Assembly: GCA_964504535.1 (NCBI GenBank)
Contig: CAZDED010000008.1
Span: 12,673-76,672 of the forward strand
From: an uncultured Gammaproteobacteria bacterium
GTDB lineage: Bacteria > Patescibacteriota > Microgenomatia > Levybacterales > GWA1-39-11
Length of the DNA stretch: 64,000 bases
Reading direction: 5' to 3'
Part shown: positions 12,256-14,728 of the stretch, piece after piece
Numbering within the stretch: position 1 is the stretch's first letter
Layout of the letters: the number at the start of each line of letters is the position of its first letter
Program-made: the position numbers and the translations under genes
The notes under the pieces: model-generated
The model's database searches: none
Seen by the model: the letters and a program-made list of their open reading frames with translations, nothing else
Told to the model about the DNA's origin: nothing

Positions 12256-12486
12256 ATGGGTTGTATTTTTATTTTGAGCACAAAAAATAGTAAAGCAACT
12301 AATATTAGCGAGTTTCTAACCGTCCATGAAGTGGCGGCATTACTTCGATTGTCTGTTCTCACCATTTACAAATACATAAAGGAAGGCCATCTTGAGGCTG
12401 TGGAGTTTGGCGGACACTATCGTGTGTCACACAACTCTCTTAATAAATTTATCAGCATCCATAAAGTAGGAGGTAGCAATGAATAA
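12256..12486 (+). CDS. Small excisionase/MerR-type helix-turn-helix DNA-binding protein
   Basis: LTVHEVAALLRLSVLTIYKYIKEGHL is a typical HTH_17/excisionase-family motif. The true start may be the TTG at 12274. Confidence 0.5.
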   Translation: MGCIFILSTKNSKATNISEFLTVHEVAALLRLSVLTIYKYIKEGHLEAVEFGGHYRVSHNSLNKFISIHKVGGSNE

Positions 12487-14728
12487 AAATTTTCAAAAAG
12501 AAGTAAGTGTAGTTATACCAACTTTTAACGAAGAGGGTAACATTGAGGAGTTAGTTGCCAAGTTGAATAGTTCACTTTTGGCAGACGGAATAACGTACGA
12601 AGTAATTTTTGTTGATGATCATTCGACAGATAACACCCAAAAGAAAATTACTGCGCTTTCAACAATCTATCCAGTAAGGCTTGTTGAGAAGAAGGGAACA
12701 AAGGGCAAGTCCTACTCTCTTAGAGAAGGCTTTTCCGAGGCACAATATGCAAACATCGCCATAATCGATGGGGATCTTCAGTACCCTCCTGAGGCGATTG
12801 CGCCGATGGTGCTTAAATTGGAAAAATTTGATGTTGTTGTTGCAGACAGACAAAGCTATCACGACACTTTAAGTAGAAGAATATTTAGTAAGACTTTTAA
12901 ACTGTTTTTTGGCAAGTTCCTTTTTGGTCTAGACCATGATGTTCAGTCAGGACTAAAAGCCTTCAGATCAGAGGTTGCCACCGTTATAAATTTTAAGCCC
13001 GCTTCTCCATGGACTTTTGATCTTGAGTTTTTACATCGGGCTCGAGAAGCAGGTTATTCAATTGGAAATTTCTCCATTACCTTTAGCAAAAGAAAGATGG
13101 GGACTTCAAAAGTAGGATCATACCGGGCCATATTTGAAATCGGCCTCAATGCGCTGAGAGTAAAGCTTAAGAGGATTCATCCTCAAGTTATGGAGTCACA
13201 AGATGGTAGCATGTTGGGTGCTGGGATTGGATACAAAAGAAAACAATTCATAACACACACAACTCTTCCACACACAAAGAGCGCCATTAGAACATTTTTT
13301 TTGAGGCAAAAATTATTTATCGGAATGCTTGTTGCACTTGTTGGTATCGGGCTAGTTATAAATTTAATTGGAGCCTTACAAATACTTGTAGCTCTTCTTT
13401 CAACTATTTATTTTCTTGACGTAGTATTTAACGCAGGGCTAATATTCAAAAGTTTACGAAATCCCCAAGAAATAGTAATTAAAAAAGAAGAACTAGCAAC
13501 TCTTTCTGAAAGTCAGTTGCCAATCTATACAATTCTTTGTCCACTATACAAAGAGGCACACATTATTCCTCAATTCTTAGAAGCAATAGCAAAAATTTCG
13601 TGGCCAAAAGACAAATTAGACGTAATTTTTCTTTTAGAAGAAGACGATAGAAATTCCATAGAGGTAGCAAAAAACCTTGGTTTACCCACTTACGTTAGAG
13701 TTGCTGTTGTTCCTGATTCCCAGCCAAAAACAAAACCAAAGGCATGCAACTATGGCCTTTCTATTGCGAAAGGTGAATACTTGGTTATTTATGACGCTGA
13801 GGATATTCCTGATCCTATGCAGTTGAAGAAAGCGTATCTTTCTTTTCAGAAAGCAGGACCCGAAATCAAGTGTCTTCAAGCAAAGCTTAACTATCACAAC
13901 CCTCATCAAAATCTATTGACACGCTTTTTTACAGCGGAATATTCATTGTGGTTTGACGTTACTTTAACAGGCTATCAATCAATTAATACCTCAATTCCGC
14001 TTGGAGGAACCTCAAATCACTTTAAAACAACTGACCTGATAAAGCTTCAGGGGTGGGATCCTTTCAATGTTACTGAGGATGCTGACCTTGGGGTAAGGCT
14101 ATTTAAGGAAGGCTTTAGGACGGCAATCATAGATTCTACAACACTTGAAGAAGCAAATAGTAAGTGGGGGAACTGGATAAGACAAAGATCGCGCTGGATT
14201 AAGGGCTACATGCAAACCTATCTTGTTCACACAAGAGATCCGTACTCGTTCATAAAGAGCAATAAGCAACACTCTCTACTTTTTAACCTTATCTTTGGTG
14301 GAAAGATAGCTTTCATATTAATAAATCCGCTCTTATGGCTTGCAACATTGTCGTATTTTACGCTCTATGCGTACGTGGGACCTTCGATTGAGAAGCTGTA
14401 CCCCTCAGCCATTTTTTACATGGCCGGAACCTCTTTGGTATTTGGAAATTTTCTTTACCTGTATTACTACATGATTGGGTGTATGAAGAGAGAGCAATAC
14501 TCATTGGTTAAGTATATTTTCTTTGTTCCCTTGTACTGGTTAATGATATCGATTGCAGGATTTTATGCACTATTTCAGTTAATCCTTAAGCCTCATTATT
14601 GGGAGAAGACTACGCATGGTCTCAATCTTATTCACTTCAAACAGAAAAGAAAAAAGCGTGATTTAAACATTACGAAAATAATATTAATTCCTGTCAAATA
14701 CGGAATGTCGTTATTAGCAAATTTCTAA
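12479..14728 (+). CDS. Double glycosyltransferase-2 fusion: N-terminal Dpm1/GtrB-like polyprenyl-phosphate sugar synthase domain plus TM-embedded processive synthase domain
   Basis: Domain 1: VVIPTFNEEGNI, DDHSTDNT, IDGDLQ (DxD). Domain 2: TM helices, YDAEDIPDP, TEDADLG (TED), QRSRW (QxxRW), C-terminal TM bundle. Confidence 0.7.
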   Translation: MNKNFQKEVSVVIPTFNEEGNIEELVAKLNSSLLADGITYEVIFVDDHSTDNTQKKITALSTIYPVRLVEKKGTKGKSYSLREGFSEAQYANIAIIDGDLQYPPEAIAPMVLKLEKFDVVVADRQSYHDTLSRRIFSKTFKLFFGKFLFGLDHDVQSGLKAFRSEVATVINFKPASPWTFDLEFLHRAREAGYSIGNFSITFSKRKMGTSKVGSYRAIFEIGLNALRVKLKRIHPQVMESQDGSMLGAGIGYKRKQFITHTTLPHTKSAIRTFFLRQKLFIGMLVALVGIGLVINLIGALQILVALLSTIYFLDVVFNAGLIFKSLRNPQEIVIKKEELATLSESQLPIYTILCPLYKEAHIIPQFLEAIAKISWPKDKLDVIFLLEEDDRNSIEVAKNLGLPTYVRVAVVPDSQPKTKPKACNYGLSIAKGEYLVIYDAEDIPDPMQLKKAYLSFQKAGPEIKCLQAKLNYHNPHQNLLTRFFTAEYSLWFDVTLTGYQSINTSIPLGGTSNHFKTTDLIKLQGWDPFNVTEDADLGVRLFKEGFRTAIIDSTTLEEANSKWGNWIRQRSRWIKGYMQTYLVHTRDPYSFIKSNKQHSLLFNLIFGGKIAFILINPLLWLATLSYFTLYAYVGPSIEKLYPSAIFYMAGTSLVFGNFLYLYYYMIGCMKREQYSLVKYIFFVPLYWLMISIAGFYALFQLILKPHYWEKTTHGLNLIHFKQKRKKRDLNITKIILIPVKYGMSLLANF

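Follow-up and report, generated by a model that had tools for sequence, protein, structure and literature searches.

Why should one gene join an enzyme type that loads a single sugar onto a lipid carrier to an enzyme type that polymerises a surface polysaccharide? The question is raised by a 749-amino-acid open reading frame (ORF), here called the fusion gene, on contig CAZDED010000008.1 (GenBank assembly GCA_964504535.1). The window analysed here is a stretch of 64,000 nucleotides of this contig (positions 12,673 to 76,672, forward strand), with a GC content of 37-40% that, together with the best named homologues, suggests a Microgenomates (Levybacteria-like) genome; the contig is deposited as an uncultured Gammaproteobacteria bacterium and is assigned by GTDB to the Levybacterales of the Patescibacteriota, in the candidate phyla radiation (CPR). 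An original prediction had described the ORF as a polyprenyl-phosphate glycosyltransferase (PPGT) joined to a processive synthase, both of glycosyltransferase family 2 (GT2), and had suggested that the first might pass a lipid-linked primer directly to the second. We found that the fusion is real and that the fusion gene belongs, as a single module, to a larger conserved cassette, and the comparative data favour a coupling other than direct delivery of a lipid primer to the polymerising domain.

The single ORF carries two GT2 catalytic domains, as had been claimed. Pfam separated two distinct GT2 regions, PF00535 at amino acids (aa) 10-148 and PF13641/PF13632 at aa 350-632, and all the motifs that had been quoted were located in the protein (DDHSTD at 46-51, DGD at 97-99, DAED at 439-442, TED at 532-534, and QRSRW at 569-573). 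The AlphaFold2 model (pLDDT 85.7, pTM 0.84) showed a first GT-A domain at aa 8-202, an amphipathic helix at 214-230 with small beta-hairpins, a transmembrane (TM) hairpin at 275-327, a second GT-A domain at 350-557, the interface helix bearing QRSRW, and membrane helices at 588-703. Hydropathy and the model agreed in putting the hairpin before domain 2 and the membrane helices after it, so that the predicted position of domain 2 between TM segments was borne out. Because two TM helices separate domains 1 and 2, both catalytic domains are expected to be cytoplasmic. The model check, which covered the two GT-A folds, recovered both of them. A GGAGG Shine-Dalgarno sequence lies 7 nucleotides (nt) 5' of the ATG, and the next ORF begins 1 nt past the stop codon.

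An artefactual joining of two adjacent genes by a frameshift or misassembly was considered as well, and split forms do exist: in two loci (L052 and L057), the first domain is its own ORF directly 5' of the synthase. The identical 749-aa protein, however, was present on three independent contigs, namely one 77-kb NCBI contig and the Logan assemblies of two sequencing runs. The best 120 homologues, from Levy-, Curtiss-, Roizman-, Chisholm-, Woese-, Gottesman-, and Buchananbacteria and from Saccharimonadales, each gave a single colinear alignment over 87-100% of the query with 53-100% identity. A HMMER scan of 1.84 billion cluster representatives likewise returned full-length relatives that align in one stretch (approximately aa 3-728). 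In an alignment of 49 orthologues, the catalytic motifs of both domains (DDHSTD, DGD, DAED, TED, and QRSRW) were all invariant, and the linker across the junction contained invariant G249, T259, and H260. The three contigs, the more than 100 colinear orthologues, and the conserved linker exclude a joining error, whose probability we consider negligible, and the fusion is therefore real.

The first half of the protein matched the predicted Dpm1/GtrB/ArnC type. In a phmmer search of the PDB, domain 1 was closest to P. furiosus DPMS (E value 2e-22), followed by GtrB (3e-17) and ArnC (2e-15), and Foldseek aligned it with P. furiosus DPMS (5mlz) over 232 columns at a root mean square deviation (rmsd) of 2.2 Å and 31% identity. 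The alignment with ArnC spans aa 7-300 and thus continues into the membrane hairpin. The motif DxDxQ has been proposed as a hallmark of polyisoprenyl-phosphate glycosyltransferases such as WpsA, DPMS, GacI, and GtrB (PMC10821137). Domain 1 contains it as DGDLQ (aa 97-101, nt 12767..12781), with D97, D99, and Q101 invariant in the 49 orthologues, and its KRKMGTSK segment (aa 204-211) was aligned with RARGESK of DPMS. In the model, the elements of membrane attachment beside the active site are the amphipathic helix, beta-hairpins at aa 236-258, and the TM hairpin. DPMS, GtrB, ArnC, GacI, and WpsA have in common with domain 1 the GT-A fold, DxDxQ, RxxGxSK, and a juxtamembrane amphipathic helix followed by a TM hairpin; they differ in that the hairpin of the fusion protein runs into a second, synthase-type GT2 instead of the protein end. 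No NCBIfam equivalog scored above its cut-off for either half of the fusion protein. Judged by its fold and family hallmarks, domain 1 is likely to make a polyprenyl-phosphate monosaccharide at the cytoplasmic face.

Domain 2 had been assigned to the BcsA/NodC/HAS type, and this assignment held. The phmmer search of the PDB matched it to BcsA (E value 2e-11) over aa 347-631. With its helices included, Foldseek aligned it with E. coli and R. sphaeroides BcsA over 448-468 columns (9b8v_E, 448 columns, E value 1e-15; 5ej1, TM-score 0.41) and with viral and Xenopus hyaluronan synthases (7sp8/8smn), so that the matches to BcsA and HAS include the membrane part; identity to the solved synthases was 11-20%. 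The D, DxD, TED, and QxxRW motif set of processive synthases is complete, DAED, TED, and QRSRW are invariant, and according to hydropathy and AlphaFold the GT-A domain is inserted between TM helices with interface helices. An invariant PHYWEKTxHG sequence (aa 705-714) directly follows the last helix, and from its resemblance to published BcsA, HAS, and chitin synthase motifs it may be the counterpart of the FxVTxK/WGTR gating loop. BcsA, class I HAS, and NodC/PgaC/NfrB have the same GT-A domain between TM helices with the same four motifs. Unlike BcsA, domain 2 has no PilZ domain, no BcsB-like partner, and fewer TM helices, and it is set apart from BcsA, HAS, and NodC by a constant GT-C-fold partner and by the fused N-terminal lipid-sugar synthase. 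From this fold and these motifs, domain 2 would polymerise a nucleotide sugar into a beta-linked backbone glycan and export it.

To place the fusion gene in a wider context, 80 loci from GTDB species genomes were compared, with every protein of the window cluster searched against six-frame ORFs. Many of the loci L005-L084 are titled "uncultured Gammaproteobacteria", "Bdellovibrionales", or "Pseudomonadales" (TPA_asm) despite CPR-type gene content, and these labels are probably unreliable. Architectures were classed with a 100-bit cut-off for domain 1; four loci classed as synthase alone or synthase-GT4 (L041, L042, L053, and L073) nevertheless carry a weaker domain 1 match. The PPGT-synthase form of the window was found in 17 of the 80 loci, and in another 17 the PPGT and synthase continue into a flippase-like MOP domain and a GT4 domain, giving all-in-one proteins of 1550-1620 aa. 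PPGT-synthase-GT4 was present in seven loci and PPGT-synthase-MOP in one; forms classed as lacking the PPGT comprised synthase-MOP-GT4 (nine loci), synthase-GT4 (two), synthase alone (24), and a synthase-GT-C fusion in three Chloroflexota loci (L077, L078, and L084). The first domains of L021, L053, L062, and L073 score poorly against domain 1 of the window.

The same 80-locus comparison revealed constant neighbours. A homologue of TM536, a 536-aa membrane protein encoded downstream in the window, was present within 10 kb in 58 of the 61 assessable loci, and a homologue of TM519, encoded just before it, in 43 of 57. The gene order TM519-TM536-X434, in which X434 is an extracytoplasmic protein, was recurrent. 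The gene directly after the fusion gene encodes a multi-TM domain fused to a GT4 domain and is translationally coupled to the fusion gene. Its multi-TM domain showed 36% identity (E value 1e-77) to the PF13440-bearing part of the homologue P0011, which identifies it as Wzx/MOP-like.

TM536 had no match in Pfam or NCBIfam, and searching the PDB sequences with a profile likewise returned nothing; its best 120 homologues (60-100% identity, most 66-83%) have no Pfam domain and are annotated as hypothetical. The top 21 PDB matches that Foldseek gave for its AlphaFold model (pLDDT 76.9) were all GT-C enzymes, among them ArnT, STT3, DPY19, PglB, AftA, AglB, Pmt4, AftB, and EmbA/B. GT-C enzymes carry an acidic motif in the first extracytoplasmic loop, and the first outside loop of TM536, directly after TM helix 1, contains an invariant YNDARSH (aa 51-57; Y51, D53, and H57). 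In a Ktedonobacterales relative, the segment homologous to TM536 scored above the PMT_2 threshold. By its modelled structure, TM536 is a GT-C-fold glycosyltransferase of a family without a Pfam model. TM519 has at least eight hydrophobic segments, a weak PMT_2 match (E value 0.019), and a match to the LA_3751/3752 putative glycosyltransferase family (E value 8e-15, below the cut-off), and it is possibly a second GT-C-like transferase.

The synthase module is also fused or adjacent to the same partners outside the CPR. Amnibacterium endophyticum and Ca. Nephthysia (Dormibacterota) encode a stand-alone synthase and, after it, a single protein that combines a PPGT, a TM536-like GT-C, and a GH5 domain, and the operon of Mycolicibacterium mengxianglii (CP065373.2, at about 5.43 Mb) encodes GtrA, a GT2, the synthase, and a PPGT-GT-C-GH5 protein. 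GtrA itself is fused to the synthase in P0405 and in seven further database homologues. The synthase-GT-C fusion of L084 (PMT_2, 31.9 bits) recurs in P0210 and P0187. The synthase module of the window is 52% identical (E value 2e-169) to the stand-alone synthase of Mycolicibacterium, which indicates one synthase family across phyla. Two further relatives (P0178 and P0166; 1220-1325 aa) carry three to six tandem MshEN domains before the same synthase module, at 45-50% identity, and the P0178 cluster includes a protein from a Sphingomonadaceae metagenome-assembled genome. MshEN domains serve as cyclic di-GMP (c-di-GMP) receptors in NfrB as well; their presence is as expected for an exopolysaccharide synthase and suggests that c-di-GMP may control the polymer made by this synthase in Proteobacteria. 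The synthase module is thus fused or adjacent to all three of a lipid-sugar synthase, a Wzx-like or GtrA flippase, and a GT-C transferase, and in the window these are encoded together as domain 1, the Wzx-like next gene, and TM536.

This composition is that of three- or multi-component transmembrane glycosylation, in which a PPGT, a flippase, and a GT-C attach sugars to teichoic acids, rhamnans, and O-antigens on the outer side of the membrane (PMC8035078). GtrABC, CsbB-GtcA-YfhO, GacI/J-GacK-GacL, the Csd pairs, and WpsA/B-WpsG-WpsJ all have it. In lactococci, such a system is combined with a Wzx flippase and extra cytoplasmic glycosyltransferases (PMC10821137), and the latter likewise stand alongside in the window cluster. 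In the known systems, the acceptor polymer comes from separate ABC-transporter, Wzy, or LtaS routes that are encoded elsewhere; here, the components are physically fused to a synthase-type polymerase, and the GT-C belongs to a family that has no Pfam model.

In the reading that we prefer, and that we consider about evenly poised between right and wrong, domain 2 builds a backbone, domain 1 supplies a lipid-linked donor, and the GT-C adds this donor outside the cell. We infer the substrates, order of events, and product of this machine as follows. Domain 2, together with the preceding TM hairpin and the following helices, would act as a processive BcsA/HAS-type synthase and pass a beta-linked backbone across the membrane, while domain 1 would form a polyprenyl-phosphate monosaccharide on the cytoplasmic face. 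Flipping of the polyprenyl-phosphate sugar would fall to the Wzx-like domain encoded by the next gene, or to GtrA in other phyla, and at the outer face TM536, perhaps with TM519, would move the sugar onto the emerging polymer. The GT4 domain, the variable soluble GT2 and GT4 enzymes, and the CDP-sugar genes would probably contribute further, strain-variable sugars. With the steps assigned in this way, the fusion would couple the synthase of the backbone to production of the donor for its own three-component decoration. Decoration is the most economical reading because the PPGT, the flippase, and the GT-C are each fused to the synthase in some lineage; this fusion pattern points to three-component extracytoplasmic glycosylation, with the lipid-sugar as an outside donor and not a primer.

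Several observations weigh against decoration. Minimal cassettes that consist of the fusion gene and TM536 with no flippase adjacent were found in L032-L034, L053, L065, and L073, and twice in L030. DxDxQ is missing from the first domain of the L021, L053, L062, and L073 fusions, and this domain may be inactive or have another specificity in some Parcubacteria-type lineages. The Foldseek matches of TM536 did not go beyond E values of about 1e-4 and TM-scores of 0.4-0.48. The synthase, for its part, has no more than about four TM helices besides its interface helices, which bears on its capacity to form a channel unaided, and QxxRW is also present in non-processive membrane GT2/GT21 enzymes. 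The minimal cassettes fit better with an extended form of the original idea, unless their flippase is encoded elsewhere: the polyprenyl-phosphate sugar made by domain 1 would prime the chain of domain 2, and TM536 would transfer the chain en bloc to a protein, peptidoglycan, or lipid and release polyprenyl phosphate, so that the fusion gene and TM536 would be self-sufficient. Such a lipid-primed synthase explains the pairwise fusions equally well, since all three would join consecutive steps. It is also in keeping with the oligosaccharyltransferases STT3, PglB, and AglB, which stand besides ArnT among the structural neighbours of TM536, with the match of domain 1 to AglJ, the starter of a dolichyl-phosphate-linked glycan (TIGR04182, E value 1e-13, below the cut-off), and with lactococcal WpsA/B, where a polyprenyl-phosphate monosaccharide can be extended (PMC10821137). 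Yet GtrA-type flippases, which serve polyprenyl-phosphate monosaccharides and in Actinobacteria are joined to the synthase or encoded next to it, would be needless if the synthase itself moved the primer, as would the Wzx-like domain fused to it in the CPR, and this analysis identified no enzyme of the synthase fold that uses a polyprenyl monophosphate sugar as its starter. Overall, we regard lipid priming as unlikely, though it deserves serious consideration.

The two remaining explanations concern the role of the GT2 domains themselves. Domain 2 could be a membrane GT2/GT21-type synthase of a glycolipid or short oligosaccharide, for example a glycosyl-diacylglycerol or lipid anchor, which domain 1 and the GT-C would elaborate into a lipoglycan. 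The weak PF13506 (GT21) match in Pfam, the small number of TM helices around this domain, and the wider occurrence of QxxRW would all suit such an enzyme. We nevertheless find it improbable, because the best structural matches are BcsA and HAS with the membrane part included, the invariant WEKTxHG loop resembles a synthase gating loop, and relatives are fused to MshEN receptors and to domains resembling GH5 glycanases, as is typical of systems that make polymers. Alternatively, the two domains could add alternating sugars to one chain without any lipid-sugar, in the manner of class II HAS or chondroitin polymerase. K4CP, PmHAS, and PmHS2 do have two GT-A domains in one chain, and Foldseek aligned both domains of the fusion protein to K4CP and PmHS2; those alignments, however, had an rmsd of 18-25 Å. 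These enzymes are peripheral and channel-less, and neither of their domains is a lipid-sugar synthase, whereas domain 1 bears the polyprenyl-phosphate glycosyltransferase hallmarks and aligns with ArnC through the membrane helices. Its homologues are fused to a GT-C in other phyla, which makes sense only if they are makers of a lipid-sugar donor. Given the poor superposition and these hallmarks, the dual-polymerase explanation was rejected as the main reading and is highly improbable.

With regard to the product of the proposed decoration system, a weak lead points to a beta-1,4-mannan-like backbone. In Actinobacteria and Dormibacterota, the fused GH5 domains have beta-1,4-mannanases as their best matches (E values 1e-23 to 1e-14) and carry PF26410 (GH5_mannosidase). 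A gene with weak GH26 and dockerin matches close to one CPR cassette belongs to the same lead. Several close homologues of the synthase module, including one on a CPR-type locus, carry the label "glycosyltransferase XagB", which JGI assigned automatically. The xagABCD genes of Xanthomonas direct an uncharacterised biofilm polysaccharide, and the beta-1,4-mannanase ManA is implicated in the dispersal of biofilms that need it (PMC3528676; PMC3609779). A mannanase is thus involved in xag biofilms, as mannanase-like GH5 domains are fused to a partner protein in Actinobacteria; unlike the cassette described here, xag has no PPGT or GT-C partner described in the xag literature cited.

The coordinates of the fusion gene, its parts, and the accompanying genes are listed in Table 1. 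The fusion gene stands near the head of an approximately 18-kb cluster on the plus strand. The small HTH_17 gene before it was also called in L002 and is in the same position in L003 and L004, its exact start being uncertain; by phmmer, a homologue lies 5' of the fusion gene in eight of 72 assessable loci. A promoter-like TAGACT-16-TATAAT (12169..12196) is followed by a terminator-like hairpin with a 12-bp stem and a T-run (12235..12265), which overlaps the start assigned to the HTH_17 gene. This hairpin could be a leader/attenuator or an operator, or the HTH_17 start could be mis-called; an Rfam search 5' of the cluster found no relevant riboswitch or leader RNA.

Table 1. Features of the glycan cluster in the window (positions are those of the window)
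Feature	Position	Strand	Details
Small HTH_17 (excisionase/MerR-like) DNA-binding gene	12256..12486	+	PF12728, E value 1.4e-11; 8-nt overlap with the fusion-gene start
Fusion gene	12479..14728	+	ATG start; 749 aa
Domain 1, PPGT-type GT2 (DPMS/GtrB/ArnC-like)	12479..13273	+	aa 1-265
TM hairpin between the catalytic domains	13301..13459	+	aa 275-327; hydropathy and AlphaFold helices 275-294 and 296-327
Domain 2 GT-A core	13496..14158	+	aa ~340-560; contains SQPKTKPKACNYG, DAED 439-442, and TED 532-534; PF13641/PF13632
QRSRW interface helix (569-573), membrane helices (588-703), and PHYWEKTxHG loop (705-714)	14183..14620	+	
Wzx/MOP-like multi-TM domain fused to GT4	14730..17210	+	multi-TM domain aa 1-430; GT4 aa ~450-826, by Pfam
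Variable cluster middle	17289..25665	+	glucose-1-phosphate cytidylyltransferase, epimerase/dehydratase, RmlC-like epimerase, DRL-type oxidoreductase, GT2, GT4, GT2, GT2, GT2
TM519, multi-TM protein	25623..27182	+	519 aa; likely true start ATG 25668
TM536, predicted GT-C-fold membrane glycosyltransferase of an unnamed family	27173..28783	+	536 aa; C-terminal soluble domain
X434, N-terminally anchored extracytoplasmic protein	28792..30096	+	434 aa; conserved directly 3' of TM536

The content of the cluster middle varies among loci; in the window, its glucose-1-phosphate cytidylyltransferase scored 399 bits against TIGR02623, above the cut-off. X434 matched no known family; it has invariant acidic residues (among them E173, E175, and E272, the last within LGEFG) and a CarboxypepD_reg-like beta-sandwich at its C-terminus, and it occupies the place held by the GH5 domain in the actinobacterial systems. 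The resemblance of its GEFG to GH5 is conjecture. A GH5-like glycosidase identity for X434 was not supported: phmmer and profile searches against the PDB were empty, and hhalign against actinobacterial GH5 gave probabilities of 0.3% and 4.3%.

Outside the cluster, a Mur-ligase-family protein in which only the middle and C-terminal domains were detected is encoded at 9022..10401, and a DsbD-TM/thioredoxin/Thioredoxin_10 fusion protein is encoded at 10410..12125 on the opposite strand. The glycan cluster is followed immediately (30288..31444) by two genes, one for a 204-aa secreted protein whose C-terminus carries a LASTG-like sorting signal, a TM helix, and a basic tail, and the next for a 177-aa sortase (TIGR01076, scoring above the cut-off). 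Among the loci with minimal cassettes, L030 (1..14083, Saccharimonadales, DATIIS010000051.1) holds three paralogous PPGT-synthase fusions, of which two precede a TM536-like gene of their own, and also a more distant stand-alone synthase-type GT2; L024 likewise carries the cassette in Saccharibacteria. In L033, a 1290-aa protein with a glucose/sorbosone dehydrogenase domain, PKD, and five PA14 domains directly follows the cassette (13834..19668), and a gene with weak GH26 and dockerin matches lies nearby, a content unusual in a CPR genome.

The single parts of the cassette are of known kinds. The fusion of a lipid-sugar synthase with a synthase-type polymerase, its constant partnership with a GT-C, and the GT-C family itself appear to be undescribed in the family libraries and literature searched. 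The original statement that no characterised enzyme has this architecture agrees with the lack of an NCBIfam model at cut-off and with a literature search, incomplete in its coverage, that found no description of this fusion or cassette in the CPR or elsewhere. The cassette would define a new GT-C family, and it links synthase-dependent polymerisation with lipid-carrier/GT-C extracytoplasmic glycosylation, which are normally treated apart. The same module set is present in cultured Actinobacteria (M. mengxianglii, A. endophyticum, and Actinoplanes sp. RD1), which brings the question within reach of genetics and biochemistry, beyond uncultured organisms.

A route in which a polyprenyl-phosphate sugar primes a BcsA/HAS-type synthase, the lipid-linked chain is exported, and the TM536 family ligates the polymer to the surface seems doubtful to us. 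If it were true, it would be a fourth general way in which bacteria assemble glycans, with the synthase-dependent and lipid-carrier/GT-C routes merged in one machine, and the principal pathway to an envelope glycan in many CPR bacteria, present also in Chloroflexota, Dormibacterota, and some Actinobacteria. The CPR, or Patescibacteria, make up a large share of bacterial diversity and are host-attached, and their envelopes are almost unstudied. The cassette is among their best-conserved envelope loci, where annotation stops at "glycosyltransferase" or "hypothetical", and its pattern suggests that a decorated cell-surface polysaccharide is built in a manner not described before.

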